DNA from: Candidatus Coproplasma sp.
GTDB lineage: Bacteria > Bacillota > Clostridia > Christensenellales > Borkfalkiaceae
DNA length: 64,000 bases
Assembly (NCBI GenBank): GCA_051884115.1
Contig: JBJEVA010000098.1
Coordinates: 26,975 to 90,974 of the forward strand
Reading direction: 5' to 3'
This document shows positions 31,931-48,542 of this stretch, piece by piece. The position numbers and the translations under genes are program-made. The notes below the pieces were generated by a model that was not told the origin of the DNA, did not search any database, and saw only the letters and a program-made list of their open reading frames with translations. The stretch's first letter is position 1. Each line of letters begins with the position of its first letter.

Positions 31931-34900
31931 TTAGTAGCTAAACGTCAAGGTCATATTTCCGCTGACCGTCTGAACTCCTGTTATGCTTGAAGAGATAACG
32001 CGTTGTATTCCCTTATCGCTACCTGTTACTTCTGCATCGTTTACGAATACGGTATAGGTTATATTTCCCGTTACGATTGTAAGCTTATTGTTGTTAAGCG
32101 TAAACGTTGCTTCACCTTCGTATAACAAAATGCTCGTTACGTTAGCCGTTCCGCCGATAACGTTACCGTTAATTCTGTACGTCTTTTCGTTTGCACCGTT
32201 TTCTAAGATGTGAACGATATTAGTGTCGGTACCGCCTCTCTTCAATTTAATTTGAAGCGAATACGTAGCCTTTTCAGCCCAAACAACTTTATAAACTTCT
32301 TCACCGTTTTCTTCTACGATATTCCAACTTGCAAAGTTGTGCGTATATTCGGTAGGGGTATCGAGAACGAGTTCTTCACCCGTTACGGGAATGGTTACCT
32401 TTGTTGCAGTGTTTGCAGGTATCTTAGTGCCGTAGTAGGTAAATTCGTATTCGCTATAAACGTTTATAATCTTTGCCAACGAATAGCTTACCGAATAGGT
32501 TACGTGGGTATAACCGCCTACCGTGCTTAACTCGGGGGTGAACACGCACTTGTAGGTTATGCCGTTTTTGGTCATATCGAACTGTGCAAAATCTACCGAA
32601 AGATTTGCCTCAATCGCTGTGCTGAGAGCAAACGTGCTGTCGCTTACCAAAGGATAATACTTTGAAAGAATTGTATTTACAGCATCTTCGGAAAGAGTGC
32701 TACCCACTACGCCGTTTAATTCGACGGTTGCGCTTGCCGTTACGTAGTCCCAACCGCTTGAATGGGTTGAACCGCCGTTTTCACCGATATAGAAGTTGAA
32801 GTTAATAAACTTGGATACGTACCTGAAATGCCTCCAATCGTCTCCGCTGGTGGTTACGATATTGTGGTAATATACGTTAAGATAGGTTACTTCGTTGCCG
32901 TTTTTACCGTTAACGTCATCCTCGGTACCGAGTACGGAACAGCCGTAGAAGGGCATTGACCTACCGCTCTTAGCTTCGCCGTGGAAGGTTACGGAATCGG
33001 CAAGGAATACAGCAAGTTCCATACCGATATTATCGAGGAACGCCCTTTCGCCTACCGTTACGATATTTTGAGGAACTACTACCCTCTTTATAGCGTGACC
33101 GTCTGTATTTGCCAACGCCTCTTTCGCGATTGCCGTTACGGGATAACCGCCGATTTCATTTTCAAGTACCAAGGTTGCAGGGTTAGAACCGTCGCAATAT
33201 TTTGCGTTAAAGCCTGCCGACCTGCCTACTACGGTATAGCTCATAGTGTCGGAGCTGAACGAATATTTAACGCAATTTATTGTCACTTCGCTGTTAACAA
33301 ACGTTCCGTAAATATCTATTGTTCCTGCCTCTTCGATTATCTCGTTTTCGCCTACCGCAGTACCGTCTGCATAGGTTACGGCGCCAATCGTCTCTAACCC
33401 CTTAACTTCGGTAGGAACCTTATCGCCGACAAACGAAGACAACGTGTATAACTGTTCGCCTGAGTGAACGATTACGCTGACCGCCGTACGCCTTACCGCA
33501 TAAACGGTCATATCGCTATTCATTACAAAACTCGTTTCTCCTACCGTGTCGGCAACCGTTGAATAGAGAAGTCTGAACTCCTTTGTATCGTCGGTATATG
33601 CAGGGGAATTATTGTCGTAGAGATATACCGTCGAGCCGTGACGGACAAGGCGGGTTTGCTTAGTGCCGTCAAGATTTACAATGGTAAGCGTATGCTGATA
33701 GAGCATATTTGAATAGTTGTAGCTTGCATCGTAATTTGAATTATCGCTGTTGTAGTAGAGATTAAAGCAACCGAACTTTTCGTCGTAACCGCTCGCCTCG
33801 TTCTTTACGAAGTGAGAGTAGTCAACTGTTATTCCCTGTGCTGAAATTATCTCGTTTGCCTTGTCGTACATTGAAGGCGCGACAACCCCCGAAGTGAGCG
33901 TATTGCCCATTACGTATTCGGTCGTTGCCCCCTCTTCATAGTTAAGGGTTGCAGAGAATTTTACGTAGGACTGAATGGCACCGCTCGCCTTTACTCCGCT
34001 TATTCCGTTATCGTCTCTAAGCAGTGCGCAATAGAGCTTTGTAAGCACGTCGCCCGTTACTTTGCCTGCGTTGAGCGCAAAGCCGTAGTAATTATCGGAT
34101 ATGCCGAACTCATTTTCAAGGGGTGATATATCGCCGAAAGACGCCGTTTCGGTGCCGTTGATTACTACGCGAAGGGCCTCTACAAAGTCGTACATCGAAA
34201 TTTCCTGTTCCTCTTTATCGGAGGTTACGTTATAGAGATATACGTCCTGAGGAGTAGTAAGTCCCGAGCTTACGTTTAAGTCGCCTGCGGTTGATTTGAT
34301 AATACTCATTACCGTATCCCAACCGCTGATGTTGAGCCACCACTTTAATACGCAGTCGTTGTCTGCCTTTACGAGCATATGGTCCATAAAGTAGTCCATA
34401 GTCATAATTCTGTATTCGGGCGTCGTGGTGTTAAGTCCCTTTGCAAGCGTTAAATATCCGCCGTGGAAGGATATGCCCACCGTGCTTTCGGGTATGGTTA
34501 CTAAGCCAAGCGCACTCATCTTCTTGACGTGTAAAAGTCCTGAGAAGTAGAAGTCGTTATCCGCCATAGAAACCGTAAGCGTCGATACGTCTATGTTGAT
34601 TGTGAACATGCTTACGATATTAGCCGTAATAGAACCGCTTAACGTGAACTTTTCATATACGTTGCCGTTATCGTCGGTTGCAAACTTGACTAAATCGCTG
34701 ATTAAATCGGGGAGGAATTCTATACTTACGTATTCCCCTCTGTCAAACGAAGAGTAATCTCTTCTCGGCGTCTTTGCCGACGAGAGCGAAAGCCAAGTCT
34801 TTAACGACTCTACGCCGTCTTTATCGATAACCTTTGCCTGTGCATTGGTTGTCATCGAGTGGTCGTTATGGTTAATTACCGCTTTAATATTGCCCAAATC

Positions 34901-37900
34901 GCCTGAATAGGTTATGCCGAGCTGACCTAACAAATTGTTAAGGTCGATATCCGTAGTAACTACGCCGTCAACCTCTGTAGAGATAACAGCCTCGCTGAAG
35001 TTGAAGTTTATGAGCTTTTCAAGTAAGGAGGCAAGCGACGTAGTCTGTGCGTCGGTTGTGTTTTCAGCCGTTTCGGGGTTTATTACAACTTCGCCCTCGG
35101 TTGAAGTTTGAGAGTTAGAGCTGTCCGTACCCATAAGTCCGCCCAACATATCCATTACGTTGGTATTGTTTATTGCCGAAACAAGTACCTTAAAGGTATC
35201 GAATAAACTATCCTGTGTTGCATAAACCTTGAAGTCGGGAAGCTTAATATCCGCTACCTGATTTAAGTTTATGAAGAAACGTTGCTGTCCGCTTTGATAT
35301 TCTGTTATAACGTGGAGGTTGATTATTACACCGCCTGCGTTTATGTTCAAAAGACCTTCCGCAAGCTTTCCGTTAAACTCGTCTTTTTCACCCGTTATGT
35401 ATAGTTCTGCGTTGACATAGACGCCTGCAAGCTCTGTAATGTTGCAGTTATCGCCACTCAGCTCGAACACTACCGAATAGGTGTCTGAACCGAGAATGTT
35501 TTCTACAGAAATACAATCTAATGCTTCAAACAGATAATCGTAGGCAAGTTTAATAAATGCAGTGTCGCCGTCCTTTGAAGAGGACATTTTGATATTTTCA
35601 CCGTCGAACTCTGCTTGGAGTGCGGAGATAAGACTTCCGCCTACCGCATAGACTTTAACGTCTCCGCCGAGAGAGAATCTTTCACCGAACGCTCCGTCGT
35701 ATTCGAGCGAGAGATTTCCGTCAGTTCCTATTTTTACGTTTGCGCAATTATCCGAAAGATAGGAGAGTAAGAGCGAAGTTCCGTCGCAGGTTGCGGAGAA
35801 GTTATTTAAGAACTCTACCCAATCGTCCTTGGCAAGTACGCCGAACACGAGCGTTAGCAATTCGTCGGTTGAAATTAAGGTCGTTGAGTTGGCTACGTCG
35901 GTTACCGTTGCGTTATCGGTCGGCGTTGTGCTGTCGGGCTGAGCAGGCTCGGCGGAAATGGGTGCCATTCCGAGTGCGGAAGCCACTTTATTATATATTT
36001 CGATAAAGCCGTTCTTTACGCCGTCTATATCCGACTTATAGATATCTAAACCGATACCGTTGAGCGCAAGTCTTACCATAGGGGTATCGACTGCGTTTTT
36101 GTTGTAATAGAGCTTTAAGGTCGTTACGTCCGTACCCGTTTCGGATATTGACATTCCGAGGTCGAGCGCAACGTATTCTTCACCGCTCTTCCAGCTTATT
36201 TCGCCCTCGCCCCAGACGTAGATTAAAATACCGTCGAGCGAGAGATAGGAGCCGTGGCTACCGCCGTTTTGCGCCTCGTCAATCACAAAGGTTATCTTTT
36301 GACCGTCCTTGATTGCGTTTATCTGCGACATTGCCGAGTTAACCGTATTCAAGAGGTCTGAGAGTTCAAAGCAACCCGTCATTATATCGGCAGGCGTTTG
36401 AGTTGAAATATCCGTGGGATTGAGCGTTAACGCTAAGCCGAGCGAAGGGAGATTTGCCGAAAGAAGGTCGCCCTCTTCGTTTTGCGCAAGATGCTTATAT
36501 GTAAGCGTAAGCTCGCCCAACGCCATACCTGTATTTAAGCCTAATACGTTGAGTAAGTTATCGACGTCAACGCCGAGGTTGAGCGTATTAGAAGTTGTGC
36601 TAAGCTGAGGAATAAGCGCGTTGATATCTGCCGTTAAGAGATTGGAAAGTATGTTGGATACGGCTGAAACGCTTTCATTATTCTGCTCCGCCGAAGCATC
36701 GGACGCAAGAGTTTCAGTCTTGGGCGTTACGTACTCTATTAAAGTTTTAACGCCTGTAACGACCTCGTCTATATTACAGCCAACCTTTACGCAAACTTCC
36801 GTATTATTTATTCTATCGAGGAGCAACACTACCTTACCGCTATCCATCGAACTGCCCTGATAGCGGATAATTATGTGTGCCGAAATCCTTTCACTATTAT
36901 ATATAAACGACAGAGTTGCATCGAGCTGAACTGCCAGAGCCTTGGTACTGTCTGTTATGGAAGCCATTGCGTCGGCAAAGTCGAAGTAAGCGTTTGCCTC
37001 TACCTTTATTCCCTTTAACGCCTCTACGTTGAGCGCGTCGCCGTCGAAGGTTATTCCCAGAACAAGTTTGTTGGCTTCGAGTACTTTGTTGACGTCTGCA
37101 AGTACGTCTGCAAGGTTTAATGCGTTGTCTAAAGTTAACTCTTCGAGTTGTTCGTTGTAGGGGTTAAGCGTTACGCCTATACCGAAAGAAGGTACGGTTG
37201 CAGATAGTAAGTTTTCACCGTTGTGTTCGTATGTAAGCGATACGTTACCGATTGTCATTCCTGCGTTTACATTGAGAAGTTTTAACGCCTCATCGACGTT
37301 TACTTCGAGGTTGAGCAGGTTTTCGCCTGCGCTGATATCGGTTAAAATTGTGTTGATATCTGCGGTTAAGAGGTTTGCAAGAATTGCGTTAAGGTCGATT
37401 GCGTTGCCGTTCGCACTCTCCGTTGCCTCTGTACTTTCCGCCGAGCCGAAATAGCCGAGTAACGTATTTACGCCGTCGATTACTTCGTTTACGTTGCAAT
37501 AGAGCTTAACGTTCCTCTCCGCTCCGCAGAGTGAATCGAGAGAGAGTATTACTCTTCCGTATGTATTTGCATCGTAAACGTAATAAGCGGTAATTGTTGC
37601 CGTTATGTTTTCATAACTTACGGTTGCCGTTACTTGGGCGGTTATACCGCTATTGAGGTCCGCATAGACTGTTGCCGTTGCGCAAAGTCCGTCCATACCG
37701 AGGCTTGCACCGTCGAAGGTTAATGCAACTGCCAATTTCTTAGCTTCAATTATGCTGTTAACGTCTGCAAGTACGTCTGCAAGGTTTAATGCGTTTTCGC
37801 AAGTTAACTCTTCGAGTTGTTCGTTGTAGGGGTTAAGCATTACGCCTACGCCGAAAGAAGGTACGCTTACGGATAGAACGTTCTCGCCGTTGTGGTTGTA

Positions 37901-40798
37901 GCCGAGCGATACGTTACCGATTGTCATTCCTGCATTTACATTGAGAAGATTGAGAACTTCATCGACGTTAACGGTTATATTTGCAGATACGCTGTCCGCG
38001 TTGAGTTCGGGAATAAGCGCATTTAAATCTGCTGATAAAAGGTTTGCGATTATTGTGTTTAAATCTATTGCATTTGCAGTCGCAGTTCCCTCAGACGTCG
38101 CCACAGTCGCACTGTTGCCGAAGTACGTAAGTAACGTGTTTACACCGTCGATTACTTCGTTTACGTTGCAATAGAGCTTAACGTTCCTCTCCACTCCGCA
38201 GAGTGAATCGAGAGAGAGTATTACTGTTCCGTATGTATTCGCATCGTACAAGTAATAAGCGGTAATTGTTGCCGTTATATTTTCGTACTCTACGTTTGCC
38301 GTAACCTGTGCCGTTAAGCCGTTTTTAACGTTGAGGTAGGCGACGGCATTTGCTTTAAGAGAGGCAAGGTAGGGTATGCTTACCGCCGTGAAGTTTGCAC
38401 CGTCAAAGGTTATTCCTACGGCGATATAATTTGCATTTATAAATTTATTTAAATCTTCGAGTATTAAATCGAGGTCGAGGTATTCGTCTTTATCAGGCTC
38501 TGTAAGCTGACCTTCGTCGTCGGCTCCGCTTACGTTTAGCGCAAAGCCGATTGCAGGCAGGGTGACGGAGAGATTACCGCCGTTTGCACCGCCCCTTTTA
38601 TAGCTGAGTGCGCAAGAACCGAATTTTACGCCTGCGTCTATATTGAACATATCCAAAAGCGTATCGATGCTTACGGCAATCTTTATCTCTGCTCCGTCCG
38701 CGTACATTTCGGTCAAAAGCGAAGAGAAGTCGGCAGAGAGAACGCCTGAAATAATATCGGCAAGCCCTGCGGTGTTTAAACCCGTTTTAGCACTGCCCAT
38801 ATTGAGGAGCGACTGCACTCCTTCGGCAAGCTGTGCTATATCGCACTTAACCTTTAAATCTAACGCAGTGCCGTTAAAGCTGTTAAGGCTGAGGTATGCA
38901 TTGCCGTATTTGCCCGACTGAGCGTTAATCTCGTAGAACACGCTTAAAGATGCGGTTAAATCGTTTCCCTTATAGTTATAATAAACGGTGGCGTCTGCTC
39001 CGAGAGATATGCCGTCTAAATTTGCATATGCCGTAACTTCTGCCTTAACGTCTTTTAGCGCAGAAATGCAAACGCCGTCCGCCGTACCGTCTATAACGGC
39101 GCGAACCTTTATGACGTCGGAGGAAAGTAGCGAATGTACGTCTGCAATATAGTCGGCAAGGTTTGCCTCGTTTTGCATAGGCTGACGGGAGATTTCTTCC
39201 GCTGTGGTCGTCTTTAAGGCAAGGCTTAATGCCGAGCCGTTATCCTTCGATGAAAGCCCCTCCACCTTTACACCGCGGATAGCTATGGTATTTCCGCTTA
39301 TGCCGAATATCATATCGACCTTGAAGTCGATACCGAGACCCAATTTATCCTTTCCGCTTGCGTCGAGGGAATTATCTAATGTTATGACCGCCTGTTTCTC
39401 ACCGGAGGTGAGTACCATTGAGTTCATTATGGTTTCGAGCAATCCGTCGAGAGAAGAGTTGCCCTCTGCGGTGTTTTCCGAAGAAGCCCCTCCCTCTTCG
39501 GGGTTATTTGCATTTGCCGAAGAGATTGCGTTATTTATTTTATCAATCAAATCGCCGAACTCACCTACAGCAAGCTTAACCTCTGCCATGTTTGCGCCGA
39601 GAGCAAAGCTTTCTCCGTAATAACAAGAGAGTCCGTTTTGACCGTATTCAACGTAGAAGTCCTGATTTTCGAGGGTCTGCCCTAAGCTTAATTTTAAACG
39701 TATGCTGTTTGCAATATCGGCTAAATCGAGGGAGAGATAGATATAACCTACGTAGGTGTTTTTGCCGAGTTTTGCAGAAATTTCAAACTGCTGTCCGCCG
39801 TCCATTATCTGCGAGAAGCCGTTAGAGAGGATATTGGTTACGTCCATTACGAGTTCTTCGTCGGACGAACCGCCCTGATTGAGATTGTCGTCGCCTATAT
39901 ATTTAGAATAATAATCTTCATAGTAAGCGAAATGCTCTTCGTCAAAATGGTCTTCGCCGTAGTAATATACAACGTTAAATTTGGATACCGATTTTAAAAC
40001 GATACCCTTGTTTATATCCGAAACTTCGTCAACGGAACAGGAATTTATCTGCCAATTTTTATCGAAGTTTACGGTAATTTCTATGTTTTTGAAGTTGGGG
40101 AAGTCCGAAAGTCCGCCCCTCGTCTTCATACCGAACTGATAGTAGAAGGTCGAAGTGTTAGGGTTGAGAACAAAGGACAGAGTATATGTTCCGTCGCTTT
40201 CGCAAACAATCTCTTCGGAAGAAACTATCGTCTCCTCGTTTACAAGGTAATTGAAAAGCTCGGTAGGGAGAAGTCCGTAGGTGTAAAGATAGGAATGTTC
40301 TGTAAAGAGAGTGGGCGCGTCGGTACTCCATTTCGCCGTAGTGGGAACGGTGTCCGCACTCGGCGTCGCACTCGTACGGAAGTAAACAGAACCCTCCTTT
40401 GTTCCGTCCTCCTTTTGGTCAAAAACGGTACAAGTCTGCGTACCGCCCTTTACCATAGACGAGAAGGTTAAGTCGGTTGTGATTAAAACTCCGTCCTTAT
40501 AGTCACGCCAAGTATTCGTACTCTGGTTTGCTATTGCCGCCGACGTTATACCCCTCGATTCCGTATGGTACTGCGTCTGGCTGTCGAATTTAGCTACTAT
40601 ATAAGCGAGGTTTTCCGCACAGGTATAAGCCGTAGGAAGACTGCCGTCCGTGGGAGGAGTCTGCCTTGCGGTGTATGCGTTTTCCGGAGCAGTCATATCG
40701 ACCGATTTGGGCATACAGCCCGCAACGCCCGTTGCCGTGCTTCCGATAAACAATGCGGATATTATCGCTGTTATTGTTTTCTTAAAAACTGATTTCAT
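31931..40798 (-). CDS. Giant (2,955 aa) predicted lipoprotein with ~223-aa tandem modules and an LRR-containing C-terminal module
   Basis: Single uninterrupted ORF. The start was moved to the ATG at 40798 (MKSVFKKTITAIISALFIGSTATGVAGC), which gives a signal peptide with a VAGC lipobox. No catalytic or known anchoring domain was recognised. Confidence 0.75.
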   Translation of the reverse strand: MKSVFKKTITAIISALFIGSTATGVAGCMPKSVDMTAPENAYTARQTPPTDGSLPTAYTCAENLAYIVAKFDSQTQYHTESRGITSAAIANQSTNTWRDYKDGVLITTDLTFSSMVKGGTQTCTVFDQKEDGTKEGSVYFRTSATPSADTVPTTAKWSTDAPTLFTEHSYLYTYGLLPTELFNYLVNEETIVSSEEIVCESDGTYTLSFVLNPNTSTFYYQFGMKTRGGLSDFPNFKNIEITVNFDKNWQINSCSVDEVSDINKGIVLKSVSKFNVVYYYGEDHFDEEHFAYYEDYYSKYIGDDNLNQGGSSDEELVMDVTNILSNGFSQIMDGGQQFEISAKLGKNTYVGYIYLSLDLADIANSIRLKLSLGQTLENQDFYVEYGQNGLSCYYGESFALGANMAEVKLAVGEFGDLIDKINNAISSANANNPEEGGASSENTAEGNSSLDGLLETIMNSMVLTSGEKQAVITLDNSLDASGKDKLGLGIDFKVDMIFGISGNTIAIRGVKVEGLSSKDNGSALSLALKTTTAEEISRQPMQNEANLADYIADVHSLLSSDVIKVRAVIDGTADGVCISALKDVKAEVTAYANLDGISLGADATVYYNYKGNDLTASLSVFYEINAQSGKYGNAYLSLNSFNGTALDLKVKCDIAQLAEGVQSLLNMGSAKTGLNTAGLADIISGVLSADFSSLLTEMYADGAEIKIAVSIDTLLDMFNIDAGVKFGSCALSYKRGGANGGNLSVTLPAIGFALNVSGADDEGQLTEPDKDEYLDLDLILEDLNKFINANYIAVGITFDGANFTAVSIPYLASLKANAVAYLNVKNGLTAQVTANVEYENITATITAYYLYDANTYGTVILSLDSLCGVERNVKLYCNVNEVIDGVNTLLTYFGNSATVATSEGTATANAIDLNTIIANLLSADLNALIPELNADSVSANITVNVDEVLNLLNVNAGMTIGNVSLGYNHNGENVLSVSVPSFGVGVMLNPYNEQLEELTCENALNLADVLADVNSIIEAKKLAVALTFDGASLGMDGLCATATVYADLNSGITAQVTATVSYENITATITAYYVYDANTYGRVILSLDSLCGAERNVKLYCNVNEVIDGVNTLLGYFGSAESTEATESANGNAIDLNAILANLLTADINTILTDISAGENLLNLEVNVDEALKLLNVNAGMTIGNVSLTYEHNGENLLSATVPSFGIGVTLNPYNEQLEELTLDNALNLADVLADVNKVLEANKLVLGITFDGDALNVEALKGIKVEANAYFDFADAMASITDSTKALAVQLDATLSFIYNSERISAHIIIRYQGSSMDSGKVVLLLDRINNTEVCVKVGCNIDEVVTGVKTLIEYVTPKTETLASDASAEQNNESVSAVSNILSNLLTADINALIPQLSTTSNTLNLGVDVDNLLNVLGLNTGMALGELTLTYKHLAQNEEGDLLSANLPSLGLALTLNPTDISTQTPADIMTGCFELSDLLNTVNSAMSQINAIKDGQKITFVIDEAQNGGSHGSYLSLDGILIYVWGEGEISWKSGEEYVALDLGMSISETGTDVTTLKLYYNKNAVDTPMVRLALNGIGLDIYKSDIDGVKNGFIEIYNKVASALGMAPISAEPAQPDSTTPTDNATVTDVANSTTLISTDELLTLVFGVLAKDDWVEFLNNFSATCDGTSLLLSYLSDNCANVKIGTDGNLSLEYDGAFGERFSLGGDVKVYAVGGSLISALQAEFDGENIKMSSSKDGDTAFIKLAYDYLFEALDCISVENILGSDTYSVVFELSGDNCNITELAGVYVNAELYITGEKDEFNGKLAEGLLNINAGGVIINLHVITEYQSGQQRFFINLNQVADIKLPDFKVYATQDSLFDTFKVLVSAINNTNVMDMLGGLMGTDSSNSQTSTEGEVVINPETAENTTDAQTTSLASLLEKLINFNFSEAVISTEVDGVVTTDIDLNNLLGQLGITYSGDLGNIKAVINHNDHSMTTNAQAKVIDKDGVESLKTWLSLSSAKTPRRDYSSFDRGEYVSIEFLPDLISDLVKFATDDNGNVYEKFTLSGSITANIVSMFTINIDVSTLTVSMADNDFYFSGLLHVKKMSALGLVTIPESTVGISFHGGYLTLAKGLNTTTPEYRIMTMDYFMDHMLVKADNDCVLKWWLNISGWDTVMSIIKSTAGDLNVSSGLTTPQDVYLYNVTSDKEEQEISMYDFVEALRVVINGTETASFGDISPLENEFGISDNYYGFALNAGKVTGDVLTKLYCALLRDDNGISGVKASGAIQSYVKFSATLNYEEGATTEYVMGNTLTSGVVAPSMYDKANEIISAQGITVDYSHFVKNEASGYDEKFGCFNLYYNSDNSNYDASYNYSNMLYQHTLTIVNLDGTKQTRLVRHGSTVYLYDNNSPAYTDDTKEFRLLYSTVADTVGETSFVMNSDMTVYAVRRTAVSVIVHSGEQLYTLSSFVGDKVPTEVKGLETIGAVTYADGTAVGENEIIEEAGTIDIYGTFVNSEVTINCVKYSFSSDTMSYTVVGRSAGFNAKYCDGSNPATLVLENEIGGYPVTAIAKEALANTDGHAIKRVVVPQNIVTVGERAFLDNIGMELAVFLADSVTFHGEAKSGRSMPFYGCSVLGTEDDVNGKNGNEVTYLNVYYHNIVTTSGDDWRHFRYVSKFINFNFYIGENGGSTHSSGWDYVTASATVELNGVVGSTLSEDAVNTILSKYYPLVSDSTFALSTAIEANLSVDFAQFDMTKNGITYKCVFTPELSTVGGYTHVTYSVSYSLAKIINVYSEYEFTYYGTKIPANTATKVTIPVTGEELVLDTPTEYTHNFASWNIVEENGEEVYKVVWAEKATYSLQIKLKRGGTDTNIVHILENGANEKTYRINGNVIGGTANVTSILLYEGEATFTLNNNKLTIVTGNITYTVFVNDAEVTGSDKGIQRVISSSITGVQTVSGNMTLTFSY
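35700..39170 (-). repeat. Array of at least 5 tandem ~223-250-aa protein modules inside the giant gene (approximate limits)
   Basis: Module starts recur with the pattern (A)LNLADVLADVN / ANLADYIADVH / LDLILEDLNKF / FELSDLLNTVN near 39165, 38480, 37795, 37125 and 36375. Confidence 0.7.
37092..38432 (-). repeat. Two adjacent, highly similar DNA copies (period 669-672 bp) within the module array
   Basis: ACGTCTGCAAGTACGTCTGCAAGGTTTAATGCGTT occurs at 37092 and 37761. A run of over 100 nt, near-identical, begins TACTTCGTTTACGTTGCAATAGAGCTTAACGTTCCTCTCC at 37481 and 38153. Confidence 0.8.
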
Positions 40799-41144
40799 AT
40801 TTTTTTCTCTTATTTGCTCACTGATAGAAATCCTTAACGCGTCATAGACCACGTTAGAGACATTTTTGACTGTTTAACGCTTAAAACCTACGATTTTAAA
40901 TAATCAGACGGTAAAATAAACTAATTCATACCCCTATTTTAAGCGGTTCAGTAAAAAAGTACAAATTTAACATTATCTATTATAACGCCAAATTTCTAAG
41001 AAGTCAACGAAATTAAAAATATTGTCATAAAATATTATTACTATTTATGTATTTATTTTACAAAAAACGATAGAAAACAACAAAAAAGACTCTTAACTAT
41101 ATTATATAATAAATTCAAAAACAAACGGAGAGTCAATTTGTCAT

Positions 41145-41876
41145 ATGACAGACTATATTTACCTTTGCGGTGCAAGCGGAGGTGCGGGGGTGACAACCTG
41201 TGCATTCCGCATAGGACTTGCCCTTGCAAGAAAGGGCGAGCGCACACTTGTTGTTGACGGCGACAGCGACTGCGCCTCCGGACTTTCGATAGCGCAAATA
41301 CCCGATTTTAACTTCTATACCCTTGCCGACGCAAGGTCGGGTGCGTGCCGAGTTAAGCAGGCGGTAATCCCCCACCCCCTTTCACCCAACCTCTACTTCC
41401 TCCCAACTCTTGAATGTTACGACGCGAAATTTATCGAAGAGTGCATTAAGCACTGCGGACAGCTCTTCGACAGGGTTATTTGCGACAATACCGCGATAGG
41501 CGTTTGCGGGCGCGCCGTGGTGGTCTGCGACCCTTACCGCACGTCCTTAGAGAGGACAAAAAAAACCGCATCCCTTTTAAAGGACGGCGGTTTGAAAAAC
41601 ACGGGTTTAATTGTAAACAAAGTTAACGGCGGTCTGGTGTTCGACGGAGCCATTTTGACTCCGCAGGAATTTTCATCCGTGACGAGGTGTTCTCTATGGG
41701 GAGTTATCCCCGAGGATTTAACCCTACCCTTGGGCAGAGCTAAAAAGCAGACCGTTAAAGCTTTTTCCATGACGGCTGACTTTATTATCGGAAACAGTCA
41801 AAAGACCTTTGGAGTATTAAAGCCCTACCTCGGATTGAAGGGAATGATTAAACGCAAAATGAGGGATTGGATATGA
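41145..41876 (+). CDS. MinD/ParA-fold protein with both P-loop lysines replaced and a C-terminal amphipathic helix
   Basis: It aligns with MinD along its length (VVDGD, NLYFLPT, IVNKV, WGVIPED), but ASGGAGVTT replaces GKGGVGKTT. The C-terminus is GLKGMIKRKMRDWI. Confidence 0.7.
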   Translation: MTDYIYLCGASGGAGVTTCAFRIGLALARKGERTLVVDGDSDCASGLSIAQIPDFNFYTLADARSGACRVKQAVIPHPLSPNLYFLPTLECYDAKFIEECIKHCGQLFDRVICDNTAIGVCGRAVVVCDPYRTSLERTKKTASLLKDGGLKNTGLIVNKVNGGLVFDGAILTPQEFSSVTRCSLWGVIPEDLTLPLGRAKKQTVKAFSMTADFIIGNSQKTFGVLKPYLGLKGMIKRKMRDWI

Positions 41877-42058
41877 TTTTACAGCAAATGACCGACAGCG
41901 AAAAGGAGCTGTTTATTGAAGATTTGAAAAGCGTATGCTCTGAATACTTCGAGGGCGACGGCAAGTACTCTGTTGACGTAGTATCCTTAGAAAAAGGGCT
42001 TTCCGTATGCGTAGTGTTCGACGCCGTAAGGGTTAGGAATTTCCGCAAACCAACTTAG
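41873..42058 (+). CDS. Short MinE-like ORF (61 aa), C-terminal topological-specificity-like region only
   Basis: ATGA overlap with the upstream stop, with GAGG 8 nt upstream. ELFIEDLKSVCSEYFEGDGKYSVDVV...VVFDAVRVRNFRK resembles the MinE C-terminal half. The similarity is weak. Confidence 0.4.
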   Translation: MILQQMTDSEKELFIEDLKSVCSEYFEGDGKYSVDVVSLEKGLSVCVVFDAVRVRNFRKPT

Positions 42059-42094
42059 TTCAATTAACCGTAAATGGTCTAGTCTTAACACAAA

Positions 42095-43405
42095 TTAACC
42101 GTAAATGGTCTGCACCGCTAAGGCAAGCTGTTCGTCGTTATAGGTTACGTTCCATTCGGCGGAAAGGAGATTACAGCCCATAGCCTTTGAAAGTCCCGTT
42201 CCGTGAATACAAGTATCGCCGTCCGGCCAATATATTGTTGCTGTTGTGAGTTTTAACACGTCGCCATAGACGGGGCGGACATAGGCGGACTGCATAATCC
42301 CCTTACCGTAAGTACGTCCGTTTTTAGCCTGCGTACCCGACTTTTTTAAATAGGCTTGCGAAAAATCGGAGATATAGACGTCGGAATAGTCTATTATCCC
42401 GTTGCATAAAAGTACCCCGAGCAACGCCTCCGAAGCGCTCGCCGTGCCGTTATCCGCCAAAACGCTGAGTTTTGCGAAAAGAGGGAACTGCCTCTCTTCG
42501 CTTACGTTTCTCCCGATAGAAGTTGCTTGCGTACTGCCGTTTTTATATTTTGCATACATAGCAAAAGGCAGTGGATTTGACAATTGCCCCGTATATATGG
42601 CCGAGATATCGCACATAACGTCAACGTATCCTCCGCCGTTTCCCCTTAAGTCGAGAATGAGAGAAGTACAGGAATTTGCGTTAAACTGCTCCATTAAAAG
42701 CCCCATTTCAGAAGAGGCGTTTCCGTAAAACTGACTGAGTTTTAAATATGCAACGCCTTCGGGAAGATAGGATATTCCGCCCTCCGAGCTTACTACCGAA
42801 GGAGTTGAGCCGTTATAGGTTATCGAGTAATCGGTATCGCAGGTAGCCATTGCGCAATAGCTTGCCTTATAACTATCTTTGGCAATCTCTTTATCGCCTT
42901 TATCGGTATGAAAAGTAATGTTCTCCCCCTCTTGTACCGACCCTATCAAAGAAGAGAATTCGGAATATGAATTGAGTTCGTAATAAACTCCGTTAACCGT
43001 AAGTCCGCTTACAAATTCACCTGCTTTCAGCCCTGCTAAGTCTGCGGGAGAATTATAAACTATCTTCTCCAAAAGCACTCCGCTCTTACCCTCAGGGTGA
43101 TTGTCCTCCTCGGATACGTATGAGCCGGAAAAACCGAAGCCGATTTTATTCCCGGCATCCGAAGCAACTATTTTTGCATACTCTTCCTTGGTGTAAAAAG
43201 CCGAATACTTATCAAGGTATTCATTTACGAAATCCTTTACCGAACCGTTGAATTTATAGCCTTCCGGCAAGTCCTCGTAATAGTGCTTTTTAATAATATT
43301 CAACACCCAATTATAAGAGGACTTTTCCTTGTTACATCCGCTTACAAGCAAAACAGGCGTGATTAAAAATACAGAGAGAACGATTAAAAATTTTTTTATT
43401 TTCAA
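42095..43405 (-). CDS. S41 family C-terminal processing peptidase, predicted lipoprotein, with a PDZ-like segment
   Basis: LLVSGC lipobox, LILDLRGNGGGYVD, GTASASEAL; TTG start behind GGAG. Confidence 0.8.
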   Translation of the reverse strand: MKIKKFLIVLSVFLITPVLLVSGCNKEKSSYNWVLNIIKKHYYEDLPEGYKFNGSVKDFVNEYLDKYSAFYTKEEYAKIVASDAGNKIGFGFSGSYVSEEDNHPEGKSGVLLEKIVYNSPADLAGLKAGEFVSGLTVNGVYYELNSYSEFSSLIGSVQEGENITFHTDKGDKEIAKDSYKASYCAMATCDTDYSITYNGSTPSVVSSEGGISYLPEGVAYLKLSQFYGNASSEMGLLMEQFNANSCTSLILDLRGNGGGYVDVMCDISAIYTGQLSNPLPFAMYAKYKNGSTQATSIGRNVSEERQFPLFAKLSVLADNGTASASEALLGVLLCNGIIDYSDVYISDFSQAYLKKSGTQAKNGRTYGKGIMQSAYVRPVYGDVLKLTTATIYWPDGDTCIHGTGLSKAMGCNLLSAEWNVTYNDEQLALAVQTIYG

Positions 43406-44155: not shown

Positions 44156-46228
44156 ATGATGGAAGAAAATGAAAACGTTTTTCCCGAAGAAGATTTAGCT
44201 CTTTCCGATGGAGAAGACTCTGCTGAAGAACAGCAGGAACAAGAACAGGAAGAACAACCTGTAAAGGCAAAATCCGCCGTAGAGCGTCCTAAAAAGGCGT
44301 TTACGGTTGTAACTTACGTCTTTGCGCTTATCTGTCTTTTGGCAGGTCTCTTTGCCCCCGTATTCAACGTACAAGGTGCGACGAGCGTCCTCGATAAGAT
44401 GCTGTTCAGATATTTGCCTGCAATGGTAAACGGTGTTGTGTATCCTTTTACAAAGACCACCCTTATCACCGATGCCGGTTGGTTCTACACAAAGTTTTAC
44501 TCCGGCGCAGTAGTTTCGGCTTGCGGTTTGGTTTATACCTTAACCTGCGTTCTTGCACTCGTTATGCTTATTCCCGTATGCGCTTGCAAGAGAGAGAACG
44601 GTAAGGATTATATCTGTGCCGTCGTTACGGAAATTATCTCTGTTGTAGTATCTGCAGGATTCGTAACCATTGCTCTCCTCTACTACTGCACTTTAAACAA
44701 CAAGGCTATCCCTTACAATATGTTTATTGCTTGGGTAGGCGTTGCAATCGTTATGGCTATTCAAGCTATTAAGACCAAGGGTTATATGGGCGTATTCAAG
44801 CTCTTCTCTTTCCTTGTTTCCTTAATCATCTTGTTGGCAATGATAGACGTAACGGTATTTATCTCTGCATTAACTTCTCCCTTATCTAAGTTCTCCGAGC
44901 TTATTACTAAGTCCGAAGAAGTTTGCTTTATTGCCGGTGAAAGCTGTGGCTTTACTGCATTATATTATATCGCTCACCTCAAAGCAAACATCTCCGTTTT
45001 ATTCGGAAACGGTGCAATGGAAACGGCTATTAACGTAATTTACATCTGCCTTGGCGCACTTGTGGTTATTAACGTCGTTCTCGAATCGATTGCCCTTGGA
45101 CTTGGTAAGGTCAAGAAAGACGACGGTTCGCCCTGCAAAAATCTCGGCGGTTCTATCGTTAACCTTATAAGATATATACTCGCTATCCTTTTAGCGGTTA
45201 CTCTTATCGTTCTCTGCACTGTATCCGAAAATTCTCACCCCGGCTTATACCTCTACGTATTGCTTTTATTGCTTGTCATTATGCTTGTACTCGTCATTGT
45301 CAAGATGGCAGTTGCAAACTCCAAGGAAAAGAAGTACGAAGCTGAGCAACAAGCTGAGGACGACGAAGACGAAGATAGCGACGAAGACGAAGTTTACCTC
45401 AACGAATCCGATGAAGCTGAAACAGAAAATTACAGCACTGAACAGTCCATCGAAGAACCTGCAGAAGAAGTTGCCGAAGCTCCCGTTGAAGAGGCTACGG
45501 AAGAAGTTGCTGAAACTCCCGTTGCAGGTGTTGCTGAAGAACCTGTAGTTGAAGAACCTGTTGAAGAGGTTGCCGAAGCTCCTGTAGTTGAAGAACCTGT
45601 TGAAGAAGTAGCGGAAGCTCCTGTTGTGGAAGAACCCGTTGAAGAAGTTGTTGAGGCTCCTGTTGTGGAAGAACCCGTTGCAGAAGTTGTTGAAGCTCCT
45701 GTTGTAGAAGAACCCGTTGAAGAGGTTGCCGAAGCTCCTGCCGAAGAACAGTTACAGATTCCTATGGAAGAACAGCCTGAGGAAACGGCTCAACCTGAAG
45801 CACCTGTAAGTTCTTATGCTCAACAGCCCTATGTATATAATCCTTATACAGAGCAACCCACCACAGACTACTCAACGTATAATCCTTTTGTAGCACCTGT
45901 AGAAGAGCCTGCTCCTACCCCCGTGGAAGAGCCTGCTCCCACTCCTGAAGTTTCGGCTTATGCTAATACAGAGGCTGTTGAAGAAGCTCAGCCCGAAACT
46001 GAAGTTTGCGACAAGTTCTTAGCTACCCTTTCTGAGGATGAGAAGAATGAGTTCAACGAAGTATTCGTAGCTAAGTCAAAGGGCAAGATTGGCAATATTC
46101 CCGAATACAAGGTTGGCGAAGACAACTCCGACTTCTTCCCTGCGGTATTCGTATATATCAACAGAATACGTAACATCTGTTCGGACGAATTGCTCGCAAA
46201 GATTTACAACCAGCTTTACAAAAACTAA
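44156..46228 (+). CDS. Polytopic membrane protein with an acidic N-terminus and a long Glu/Pro/Val tandem-repeat cytoplasmic or extracellular region
   Basis: 690 aa with ~8-9 hydrophobic spans, then (VVEEPVEEVAEAP)n, a Pro-rich stretch and a ~90-aa C-terminal domain. No family was recognised. Confidence 0.6.
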   Translation: MMEENENVFPEEDLALSDGEDSAEEQQEQEQEEQPVKAKSAVERPKKAFTVVTYVFALICLLAGLFAPVFNVQGATSVLDKMLFRYLPAMVNGVVYPFTKTTLITDAGWFYTKFYSGAVVSACGLVYTLTCVLALVMLIPVCACKRENGKDYICAVVTEIISVVVSAGFVTIALLYYCTLNNKAIPYNMFIAWVGVAIVMAIQAIKTKGYMGVFKLFSFLVSLIILLAMIDVTVFISALTSPLSKFSELITKSEEVCFIAGESCGFTALYYIAHLKANISVLFGNGAMETAINVIYICLGALVVINVVLESIALGLGKVKKDDGSPCKNLGGSIVNLIRYILAILLAVTLIVLCTVSENSHPGLYLYVLLLLLVIMLVLVIVKMAVANSKEKKYEAEQQAEDDEDEDSDEDEVYLNESDEAETENYSTEQSIEEPAEEVAEAPVEEATEEVAETPVAGVAEEPVVEEPVEEVAEAPVVEEPVEEVAEAPVVEEPVEEVVEAPVVEEPVAEVVEAPVVEEPVEEVAEAPAEEQLQIPMEEQPEETAQPEAPVSSYAQQPYVYNPYTEQPTTDYSTYNPFVAPVEEPAPTPVEEPAPTPEVSAYANTEAVEEAQPETEVCDKFLATLSEDEKNEFNEVFVAKSKGKIGNIPEYKVGEDNSDFFPAVFVYINRIRNICSDELLAKIYNQLYKN
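45449..45750 (+). repeat. In-frame 39-bp tandem repeat (5 regular units at 45542-45736 plus degenerate flanking copies)
   Basis: Units CCTGTAGTTGAAGAACCTGTTGAAGAGGTTGCCGAAGCT and variants begin at 45542, 45581, 45620, 45659 and 45698. Confidence 0.85.
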
Positions 46229-46487: not shown

Positions 46488-46850
46488 TTAGTTACGTTTG
46501 ATTACTACCGTAACGTTACCGCCGTTTATTGTTACCCTTCCTTCCGAAACAGAGTTTACAATATAAAGCCCTCTACCGCTTTCCGCTAAGACGTCCGGAA
46601 GTGCCGTAACTTTTATTACTCCGTTCGGTGCAGACGCACATACGGTAATCGTTACTCCGTCTTCATCTATCTCTCCGCTAAATATTGCAGTCCCTGAACA
46701 GTGGCGCAACACGTTTGTAATTAACTCGCAAGATACAAGACGGGAATAGAAAACGGCGTCTTCATCGACGTTTCTGTCAATCATATAATTGACAAAGCGG
46801 TGGAGTTCTGTATTCATTTCATCGATAGCGCTGACTTCAAATTTAATCAT
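46488..46850 (-). CDS. Small GHKL (HATPase_c_2) anti-sigma-factor-like kinase, 120 aa
   Basis: N-box CELITNVLRH retained; ESGRGLYIVNSV G-box-like; 8-nt overlap with the sigma gene stop. Confidence 0.65.
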   Translation of the reverse strand: MIKFEVSAIDEMNTELHRFVNYMIDRNVDEDAVFYSRLVSCELITNVLRHCSGTAIFSGEIDEDGVTITVCASAPNGVIKVTALPDVLAESGRGLYIVNSVSEGRVTINGGNVTVVIKRN

Positions 46851-47571
46851 CTTGCAACGCTTCCCTCAATTTTTTTGTTATCCTGCGTTCCATTCTTGAA
46901 ATGAACATCTGGCTGACGCCCATCTCCTTGCCCGTTTCTGCCTGCGATTTATTTTCAAGGTATCTAAGCTTAACAAGCAACTTCTCTTCCGGGGTGAGTT
47001 TTTCCACCTCCGCCTTGACTGATTCGTTACTTATAAACCTTTCAAAAGTACTGTCGTCGTCCGCAATGACGTCGTATAGGGGCATATCGTTATCTTCCCC
47101 CCTTACCGTCGTATCGAGGCTGACGGGAGTTTTATATTCCATAGCCTCCAAAATATCCTCTTCGCTTTCGTGTAAAATCGCAGAGAGTTGCTTTACCGTA
47201 GGTTTTACGCCGTTTTCTCTATAATAGTCGTTTACTGCCGATTTAACGCTTACTCTAAGCGTATTCAGCTTTCTCGGCACGCGCACCGAACGGGAATAGT
47301 CACGAAAATAATTACATATAAAACCCGTTATGGTAGGGGTTACGTACGTAGTAAACATATTCCCCTTATCGGGGTCGAATTTGTCAACGCCCTTAATCAA
47401 CGCTTCGGAGGCAATCTGTAAAAGGTCGTCGTATTCGACGCCCCTACCCGTAAACTTTTTTGCCAGAATTTCGGCAACGTACATATAGTTTTCAATAAGC
47501 TTATTCCTCAACTTTATATCGCCCGTTTTGCGATATTCGCGGAACAGCTCCATTGCTTCCTCGTTGGTCAT
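46843..47571 (-). CDS. Group-3 sigma-70 family factor (SigB/F/G-like)
   Basis: Region 2 (YDDLLQIASEALIKGVDKFDPDKGNMFTTYVTPTITG), RVPRKL, region 4 HTH (SQAETGKEMGVSQMFISRMERR). Confidence 0.85.
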   Translation of the reverse strand: MTNEEAMELFREYRKTGDIKLRNKLIENYMYVAEILAKKFTGRGVEYDDLLQIASEALIKGVDKFDPDKGNMFTTYVTPTITGFICNYFRDYSRSVRVPRKLNTLRVSVKSAVNDYYRENGVKPTVKQLSAILHESEEDILEAMEYKTPVSLDTTVRGEDNDMPLYDVIADDDSTFERFISNESVKAEVEKLTPEEKLLVKLRYLENKSQAETGKEMGVSQMFISRMERRITKKLREALQDD

Positions 47572-47915
47572 AATTTTAACTTAAATCCGCTTATTTTTCC
47601 TTCGTTCTTTATGATATCGCAAGTTGCCACAAGTGCCGAAATGAGCGACAGTGAAAAGCCGTTGTCGCAGTCTGCGGGCATACCGCCGAAGCCTTCAATC
47701 AATGCGGTAACACCGCCGTCGCACCCGAGCGCAACCTTAACGCTCTCGTAACCGCAATCCTTTAAGACAAGACAGCTTTCCGTTACGCATACCTTCATAT
47801 CCTCTAAGCAATCAATATCGACGTCTGCCGTAGAGCATACGGCGCCCACCACAAGGCGGAGAGCCGTCATATATTCACTGTCTGAAAGATTAAATTCAAC
47901 CGTAAAAGTTTTCAT
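47568..47915 (-). CDS. Degenerate SpoIIAB/RsbW-like protein (115 aa) lacking the N-box Asn/His
   Basis: ALRLVVGAVCSTADVDIDCLEDMKVCVTESCLVLKDCGY aligns with SpoIIAB [38 protein letters not shown], but Asn becomes Val and His becomes Asp. ATGA overlap with the sigma gene. Confidence 0.5.
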   Translation of the reverse strand: MKTFTVEFNLSDSEYMTALRLVVGAVCSTADVDIDCLEDMKVCVTESCLVLKDCGYESVKVALGCDGGVTALIEGFGGMPADCDNGFSLSLISALVATCDIIKNEGKISGFKLKL

Positions 47916-48220
47916 TATTCAATCTCCATCAACTTATCCAACGCACAGATTTCAAAGAGTTTTCTTATGCGGGGGCGGACGTTAATAAGCTTCAAATTAT
48001 TGCCTTCTGCCTTTAAATTTTTAAAGAGTTTTACAAAGGTTCCGAGCGTAGTGCTGTCTATAAATTCCAATGCGCTACAATCGAAAACCACGTCCTTTTT
48101 ATCGTTATGATACATTGCGCTAACCTCGGCATAGAAGTCGTCGCTCGTTGCGCTGTCTATTTCGCCCGTTAAGGCAATAGTTAGTTTTTCGTCTGCGGAA
48201 AGCAAATTGACTTGTTGCAT
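47915..48220 (-). CDS. STAS-domain anti-sigma-factor antagonist (RsbV/SpoIIAA-like)
   Basis: FIDSTTLGTFV with the conserved phosphorylatable Ser. The start was moved to the ATG at 48220 behind AGGAGA. Confidence 0.8.
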   Translation of the reverse strand: MQQVNLLSADEKLTIALTGEIDSATSDDFYAEVSAMYHNDKKDVVFDCSALEFIDSTTLGTFVKLFKNLKAEGNNLKLINVRPRIRKLFEICALDKLMEIE

Positions 48221-48542
48221 TATCTTTCTCCTGAATAATCTTTCAATAATATTTATAAACACGTACGGGGCTGTTAAAACTTAAATTTTAACGCATACCT
48301 ACATTTTAGTTTAAACCTTAGCTTTTGTCAATACCGTTAAAATAATCTTATACGATTAAATATTTACAGCCGATGATATTGCGTTTTACATACTTATTTT
48401 TTTAACACACAAATTATTTAAAAACACGTTTAAGTTATAGACGAATTATGTTAAGACGGTTAGCAATTTTTGTTATTATATGTATATTTATTAAATAATA
48501 TATGAATATTTATGCAGAATGAGCATTGCCATTTTAAATTTA

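Follow-up and report, generated by a model that had tools for sequence, protein, structure and literature searches.

The stretch of DNA analysed here (the window, 64,000 nucleotides of contig JBJEVA010000098.1 of Candidatus Coproplasma sp.) carries at 41145 to 42058 two overlapping genes, the first encoding a 243 amino acid (aa) protein that is, by sequence profile and by predicted fold, derived from MinD, and the second a 61 aa protein whose sequence supports descent from MinE. The pair is translationally coupled, vertically inherited and characteristic of the Borkfalkiaceae, a family of uncultured gut Clostridia in whose ancestor the MinD active site was dismantled: Lys16 of the P-loop was replaced, switch I was altered and nine residues of switch II were deleted. 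In parallel, the MinE partner would have shed its membrane-targeting sequence and most (in the window, all) of its MinD-contact segment. MinD and MinE are the textbook self-organising, ATP-driven oscillator, and what defines it is the P-loop lysine together with switch II and the activating helix of MinE; the pair described here probably no longer works as such a classical oscillator. What is newly established, at the level of sequence comparison, is a family-wide and deeply conserved remodelling of MinD and MinE that includes the switch II deletion, and a literature search turned up no description of such a MinD, with the term "pseudo-ATPase" used in none of the 12 papers listed. The features of the pair are the following.

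41127-41132, plus strand: Shine-Dalgarno-like GGAGAG of the MinD-like gene
41145..41876, plus strand: gene for the MinD-derived protein with a degenerate ATPase site, 243 aa
41166..41198, plus strand: degenerate deviant Walker A motif, residues 8-18, CGASGGAGVTT against canonical SGKGGVGKTT
41256..41264, plus strand: switch I Asp-Gly-Asp, residues 38-40, with D38 and D40 kept, invariant in the family alignment
41472..41510, plus strand: Walker B strand and shortened switch II, residues 110-122, RVICDNTAIGVCG, with D114 invariant
41832..41873, plus strand: cationic C-terminal helix, residues 230-243, GLKGMIKRKMRDWI, at the MinD membrane-targeting position
41861-41866, plus strand: Shine-Dalgarno-like GAGGGA ahead of the small open reading frame (ORF)
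41873..42058, plus strand: gene for the putative MinE-derived protein, 61 aa, equivalent to about residues 29-88 of E. coli MinE

Distribution and selection

Coproplasma, whose genomes measure 1.4-1.7 Mb, is GTDB genus UBA11940 and belongs to the Borkfalkiaceae within the Christensenellales (PMC8035907). Our survey, which took one genome per GTDB species, recovered the pair with conserved synteny from at least 127 species of this family, and 80 of the loci were examined; all 80 are from metagenome-assembled genomes (MAGs) of Clostridia, and those that bear a name below the level of class are labelled Coproplasma, Borkfalkiaceae, Christensenellaceae or "uncultured Christensenella". A database search gave 190 homologues of the MinD-like protein, nearly all of them 242-243 aa long. 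The initial annotation of this DNA had described a downstream ORF whose ATG overlaps the TGA of the MinD-like gene as ATGA, and this arrangement recurs too often to be a matter of chance: the small ORF lies directly downstream of the MinD-like gene in every one of the 79 loci whose sequence extends far enough, and the 4 nucleotide (nt) overlap is present in nearly all of them. Both genes are under strong purifying selection: when they are compared with those of locus L086, a relative at 86 % identity with the same Ser11/Val16 P-loop and likewise a 61 aa partner, the ratio of nonsynonymous to synonymous substitution rates (dN/dS) is 0.12 for the MinD-like and 0.10 for the MinE-like gene.

The MinD-derived protein

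The product of ORF 41145-41876 starts MTDYIYLCGASGGAGVTT. Pfam recognises in it only a generic CbiA/ParA-type domain, and its best NCBIfam match is the bacterial MinD equivalog TIGR01968 (63.8 bits, E 1.5e-17), with a score below the equivalog cutoff of 212.9; the scores of other members of the degenerate family, 78-109 bits, also lie below it. A family profile built from 29 diverse homologues and run against the sequences in the PDB matched the MinDs of Aquifex (E 3.9e-28) and E. coli (E 1.3e-24), as well as that of Pseudomonas and three archaeal MinDs, with MinDs down to E 1e-14 and only then FleN (E 3e-10), ArsA and Soj. The AlphaFold2 model of the window protein (predicted local distance difference test score, pLDDT, 87.8; predicted template modelling score, pTM, 0.85) gave the same family in a Foldseek search of the PDB, where ranks 1-12 are all MinD chains (template modelling scores, TM-scores, 0.71-0.81) and FlhG and FleN are the next-best matches. 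Similarity in sequence and in structure is thus greatest to MinD, ahead of ParA, FlhG and ArsA, and the alignments confirm the substitutions described below. That the protein aligns with MinD over its whole length, as first proposed, is correct in so far as profile and fold both rank MinD first, but the hidden Markov model (HMM) alignments span residues 1-195, the C-terminal 50 residues are alignable structurally only, and internal deletions had been missed.

Canonical MinD holds the beta and gamma phosphates through Lys16, while its Lys11 extends to the other side of the sandwich dimer and its switch II senses the gamma phosphate. The initial annotation had both P-loop lysines lost, with ASGGAGVTT in place of GKGGVGKTT, and sequence and alignments agree: residue 11 of the window protein is Ser and residue 16 is Val. 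The two losses differ in their spread. That of Lys16 is not peculiar to this genome; it is fixed family-wide and goes with changes in the switches. Position 16 is A, V, T, S, G, C or L and is Lys or Arg in none of 118 homologues and none of the 80 loci. At position 11, that of the signature lysine, 76 of 80 species loci still have K or R, and Ser or Gly there is restricted to the immediate relatives of the window protein and a few others. From these alignments, the only lineage-specific features of the window pair are the loss of the signature lysine and the extreme MinE truncation.

We note that Arg takes the place of Lys at position 11 in roughly half of the database homologues (K in 56, R in 54) and in 13 of the 80 loci; the signature lysine is a hallmark of the ParA/MinD ATPases, and Arg at this place is unusual.

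Both switches are changed relative to canonical MinDs. In switch I, CAxGL stands where canonical MinD has LNNxD, and immediately after the Walker B Asp there is an exact 9-residue deletion of "PAGIxxGFH" in all 80 loci. With this stretch go the gamma-phosphate sensor of switch II and the first part of the helix behind it, and in the AlphaFold2 model the strands at residues 110-114 and 123-128 are joined by a short turn only. Elsewhere conservation is high, with 38 invariant columns in the alignment of 29 diverse family sequences; G12, G13, G15, D38, D40, D114, an NKVNGGL motif and IPED are invariant, and T17/T18 are mostly kept. When the family is aligned with canonical MinDs, no invariant Lys or Arg peculiar to it is found in the core as a possible substitute for the lost lysine: R33, R69, K71 and K159 all have basic or equivalent counterparts in canonical clostridial MinDs.

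The C-terminal segment GLKGMIKRKMRDWI aligns with the tail of the canonical clostridial MinD of locus L081 and with the E. coli MinD tail. It is predicted by AlphaFold2 to be helical at residues 231-242 and has a charge of +4; the family alignment shows no variation at G230, G233, R237 and R240, and K236 is kept in at least 90 %. The earlier proposal that a membrane-targeting helix is retained therefore agrees with its position, its predicted structure and its conservation, although its amphipathicity does not exceed that of shuffled sequences (see below).

The MinE-like protein

No Pfam or NCBIfam family was matched when the 61 aa window protein was scanned directly, so that its relationship to MinE was approached through its relatives. 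Of all Pfam families, MinE (PF03776) is matched by the largest number of members of the small-protein family, though at sub-threshold level, with matches in 4 of 42 members and a best E of 0.0036. An exhaustive HMMER search of 1.84 billion representatives returned 77 matches, 16 of them from the family itself, followed by a second tier of 75-87 aa proteins, and hhalign relates the two groups with a probability of 99.6 % (E 7.7e-25). Pfam MinE is matched by 27 of 51 second-tier proteins at E <= 1 in a consistent register, with a best E of 4.6e-6; only one of them, P0305, scores above the gathering score (26.0 bits versus 25), and no other Pfam family is matched by more than two of the 51. Homology of the small protein to MinE is thus supported transitively. 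Against the single sequence of E. coli MinE, hhalign gave weak matches in the expected register (E 0.23 for the small-protein family and 0.013 for the second tier). In the AlphaFold2 model of the window protein (pLDDT 86.6), a helix at residues 8-22 is followed by strands at 26-38 and 43-53, and this alpha-beta-beta order is that of alpha1-beta2-beta3 of the MinE dimerisation domain in the inferred register.

Positions in these proteins can be given on a ruler of E. coli MinE (a sequence which matches Pfam MinE with 86.5 bits over residues 14-82), in which we take residues 2-12 to be the membrane-targeting sequence and residues ~13-26 the MinD-contact, ATPase-activating segment. In MinE, residues ~13-26 bind the MinD dimer interface and trigger hydrolysis. 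The three kinds of small protein compare as follows.

Second-tier 75-87 aa family: starts at about E. coli MinE residue 13, without the membrane-targeting sequence, contact region kept
Typical Borkfalkiaceae small protein: starts at about E. coli MinE residue 19-20, with a stub of the contact region left
Window small protein: starts at about E. coli MinE residue 29, topological-specificity domain only

Most Borkfalkiaceae copies are 66-72 aa long and start "...ILSLDRDDMSDFERELFLKD...", and in most family members the MinD-contact segment is reduced to the stub "ILSLDRDDM". The window protein and those of its two closest relatives (L086 and L087) are the shortest, at 61 aa. The small protein is thus supported by sequence as a MinE derivative that is reduced in the window to the topological-specificity domain. 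This is as the initial annotation had it, which likened the 61 aa to the C-terminal half of MinE without the MinD-activating and membrane-binding part, and the register from Pfam and hhalign agrees; the ORF is both conserved (79 of 79 loci) and similar to MinE by way of the intermediate family.

A MinE-like family beside canonical MinD in other Clostridia

The second-tier proteins (P0259-P0317; typical sequence MKKKKNEIIRLQSLIENDR...EYFD...RIKNF) are of interest in their own right. Their genes lie directly after a MinD gene in all seven loci examined (L081-L085, L088 and L089), either overlapping it or about 10 nt away. The MinD partner is canonical, with GKGGVGKTT and DxPAG, in the five loci whose translations were analysed (L081, L082, L084, L088 and L089), and the gene called in L085 has a stop codon in its translation. 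One such partner scores 248 bits against TIGR01968, above the cutoff, and two others score 189 and 199; mreB precedes the MinD gene in two of the loci, and minC is adjacent in none of the seven. In the homologue listing these small proteins are "hypothetical" or nameless and have no precomputed Pfam domain.

They share with the window small protein the position after a minD-type gene, the motifs EYF(E/D) and R-I/V-K-x-F and, as it seems from their sequences, the lack of the N-terminal MinE-type membrane-targeting sequence. They differ from it in keeping "R-L-x-x-L-I-x-x-D-R", which aligns with the E. coli MinE contact region, and in having a fully canonical rather than a degenerate MinD partner. 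Genome annotation currently overlooks this divergent MinE-like family beside canonical MinD.

Genomic neighbourhood

As had been described before, the pair is transcribed divergently from a giant lipoprotein gene and has no minC next to it. The neighbouring features are these.

31931-40852, minus strand: giant predicted lipoprotein gene, 2973 aa, with long internal repeats, divergent from the pair
40853..41144: AT-rich intergenic region between the divergent genes, recognised from the sequence, which holds the GGAGAG ribosome-binding site of the MinD-like gene
42095-43405, minus strand: S41 peptidase gene, convergent with the pair
46488-46850, minus strand: HATPase_c_2 anti-sigma-like protein, 120 aa
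46843-47571, minus strand: sigma-70-type factor
47568-47915, minus strand: 115 aa protein of unknown family
47915-48262, minus strand: STAS-domain protein

A consensus scan of the intergenic region found a sigma-70-like site with 11 of 12 matches for the minus-strand giant gene; the sole plus-strand match (9 of 12) is at 40866-40894, about 250 nt before the ATG of the MinD-like gene, and the scan gave no further plus-strand sigma-70-like site between the start of the giant gene (40852) and this ATG. Thirty-eight ORFs of the window, including all those beside the pair, were scanned against Pfam and have ordinary chromosomal functions (yqfD-phoH-7TM-HD-ybeY-era-recO; spoVAD and mcsB; tig-clpP-clpX and citrate synthase), with no minC or mreB among them. 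Conserved downstream of the pair are the S41 peptidase, a PucR-type helix-turn-helix (HTH) protein, a large membrane protein and the sigma-factor cluster.

Several of these neighbours deserve a remark. An exact 19-bp direct repeat, AATTAACCGTAAATGGTCT, occurs at 42062-42080 and 42093-42111; copy 2 is the 3' end of the S41 peptidase gene (the last five codons and the stop) and copy 1 lies in the 36-bp spacer past the MinE-like gene, which points to a small duplication of a gene end. The large membrane protein is a 690 aa multi-pass protein (44156-46228, plus strand) with a long acidic tandem-repeat segment (EEPVEEVAEAPVV...); 65 related loci keep it on the downstream side of the pair, and it has no informative Pfam match. 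The conserved cluster at 46488-48262 (minus strand) has the unusual order STAS, 115 aa protein, sigma-70-type factor and HATPase_c_2; in the classical spoIIA order the sigma factor is last. Beside the giant gene, an 860 aa ORF (29068-31650, minus strand) has no Pfam match at E <= 0.001.

Comparison with known systems

The pair shares with bacterial MinD and MinE (those of E. coli, and of C. difficile, PMC4905992) the fold and the place of minE directly after minD, together with D38, D40, the Walker B Asp and, by prediction, the basic C-terminal helix of MinD and the MinE alpha-beta-beta domain. It differs from them in that Lys16 is missing throughout the family (in the window Lys11 as well), switch I is changed and the switch II "PAG" deleted, the small protein is without the membrane-targeting sequence (the window copy also without the MinD-contact segment), no minC stands beside the pair and the MinD-like protein scores far under the equivalog cutoff.

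The closest experimental parallel to the substitution at position 16 is MinD-K16A of B. subtilis, a monomer that cannot bind ATP and has next to no ATPase activity, yet stays membrane-associated, with a dissociation constant (KD) of 1.36 versus 7.17 uM for the wild type and slower release (PMC13246001). The family carries the same class of substitution at the P-loop lysine. MinD-K16A, however, is non-functional in division, whereas the natural family is under purifying selection, has the switch II deletion in addition and has a co-evolved MinE-like partner.

TadZ/CpaE proteins are, like the window protein, natural members of the superfamily without the canonical Walker A lysines, and TadZ is a localisation factor and not an oscillator. 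TadZ has an extra N-terminal receiver-like domain and sits in tad pilus loci; the window protein is a single 243 aa ATPase-fold domain, and no Tad pilus family was found among the 38 window ORFs scanned against Pfam. TIGR03815 matches the window protein over residues 7-48 only, and the family profile gave no TadZ match in the PDB at E <= 1e-5. McdA, which positions carboxysomes, is a ParA/MinD-type ATPase whose key lysines are atypically placed, and FlhG and FleN are ParA/MinD-type positioning ATPases, FlhG with a MinD-like membrane-targeting sequence; all of these differ from the pair in being active ATPases with other partners and no MinE-type partner gene.

A possible static role for the pair

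Since MinD-K16A is membrane-bound, a family that lacks Lys16 and switch II and keeps the basic helix is most simply read as constitutively membrane-bound and without a hydrolysis cycle. The homology, the lost motifs, the family-wide conservation, the purifying selection and the operon coupling are shown by the sequences; that hydrolysis is lost, that the protein binds membrane, that the two proteins form a complex and that they have a part in division is what we infer, along the following lines. The MinD-like protein would no longer cycle through ATP hydrolysis, which we consider likely; it may retain nucleotide as a structural ligand, and we lean slightly away from the view that it binds no nucleotide at all. 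It would sit on the membrane by its basic C-terminal helix and form a stoichiometric complex with the dimeric MinE-domain protein, and the pair would be a static adaptor, or a marker of position, at the membrane and not a reaction-diffusion oscillator. Whether such a static adaptor with a dimeric MinE-domain partner is the right description seems to us evenly balanced. The initial annotation had likewise proposed a static scaffold instead of an oscillator; that the pair oscillates is indeed unlikely, and a scaffold is plausible by analogy with MinD-K16A. A wider proposal, that the Borkfalkiaceae have no Min-type system left but the degenerate pair, and that this works without ATP turnover as a complex of lysine-less, constitutively membrane-bound MinD and MinE domain, can be put forward only tentatively, and on balance we doubt it.

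Several observations weigh against this picture of a static, membrane-bound complex. The invariance of G12, G13, G15, D38, D40 and D114, with T17/T18 mostly kept, suggests that selection still acts on the phosphate/Mg site, in which case the protein may yet bind nucleotide and switch to some extent. The topological-specificity domain of canonical MinE is not known to bind MinD, so that a complex of the pair would need a new or residual interface. Foldseek placed no MinE among the best 50 PDB matches of the small-protein model (best E 0.43), and profile searches of PDB sequences with the small-protein and second-tier families gave chance-level matches and no MinE, so that homology of the small protein to MinE rests on the profile chain and the gene context. 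The hydrophobic moment of the C-terminal helix (0.46-0.60) is no different from that of shuffled sequences, although this is a weak test for short segments, and its invariant basic residues could serve another partner. Finally, TadZ of Eubacterium rectale, a ParA/MinD superfamily member in which neither lysine is present, is reported to remain an active ATPase by means of a compensating lysine (as cited in PMC10482377).

Four other explanations were considered. In the first, these genomes also hold a canonical minCDE at another place, and the pair is a specialised paralogue that has been recruited to a task outside division, such as sporulation- or envelope-linked positioning. The sporulation-related neighbours (yqfD, spoVAD, the S41 peptidase and the sigma/anti-sigma cluster), the conserved synteny with the S41 peptidase and PucR-HTH genes and the lack of minC and mreB among the scanned ORFs of the 64-kb window are all in its favour. 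We nevertheless find it unlikely: the degenerate type was found only in Borkfalkiaceae-labelled MAGs, with one copy per locus, the relatives outside carry a single canonical MinD and MinE-like pair, which fits orthologous descent, the conserved neighbours are transcribed separately from the pair, convergently or divergently, and the genomes are small (1.4-1.7 Mb, PMC8035907).

In the second, the MinD-like protein is still an ATP-dependent switch that forms an ATP-bound sandwich dimer and hydrolyses slowly, the role of the lysine being taken by another residue or by the partner protein, as reported for TadZ. The initial annotation had deduced from the lysine losses that ATP-dependent dimerisation and hydrolysis should be abolished, and that deduction is unsafe in view of the reported activity of TadZ (as cited in PMC10482377) and of the invariant P-loop glycines and threonines, D38, D40 and Walker B Asp. 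A switch is also favoured by the K or R at position 11 in 76 of 80 species, and some ParA/MinD members are known to carry key lysines elsewhere in the sequence (PMC11407121). Against it stand the deletion of the switch II "PAG" in all members, the further loss of Lys11 in the window lineage, a MinE partner without the segment that activates the MinD ATPase and the lack of any family-specific invariant Lys or Arg in the core; we regard such a switch as improbable.

The third has the pair work together with the adjacent giant lipoprotein, for instance by positioning its secretion or anchoring, and follows from the link between the pair and the giant surface gene that the initial annotation had drawn. 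The divergent layout in the window and a giant homologue upstream in 29 of the loci clustered speak for it, but in others yqfC/yqfD stand directly upstream, and the giant gene is missing from many related loci in which the pair is unchanged. Its homologues range from 579 to 3225 aa. Its absence from many loci marks the giant gene as an optional insertion and not a partner; it is a variable, insertion-like surface gene, and the partnership, to which we give very little credence, is rejected on synteny. The fourth, that the genes are decaying Min relics en route to loss, might be suggested by the lost catalytic residues, the deletions, the N-terminal truncation and the small, reduced genomes, but this is scarcely credible and is excluded by the dN/dS of ~0.1 for both genes, the 38 invariant columns among 29 sequences, the uniform lengths and the reading frames and overlap kept in nearly all of 79 loci.

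Significance

At least 127 species have removed the oscillator-defining parts from both Min partners and yet keep both genes, coupled and under strong purifying selection. This is a natural experiment which indicates that the MinD fold and the MinE dimerisation domain have a selectable function independent of the hydrolysis cycle, and the family provides ready-made sequences for studying how a "K16A-like" MinD behaves in combination with a domain-only MinE. If the pair is in fact the sole, static Min system of these bacteria, the topological-specificity domain of MinE would have a MinD-linked function of its own, and evolution would be able to turn the Min module from an oscillator into a static positional scaffold.

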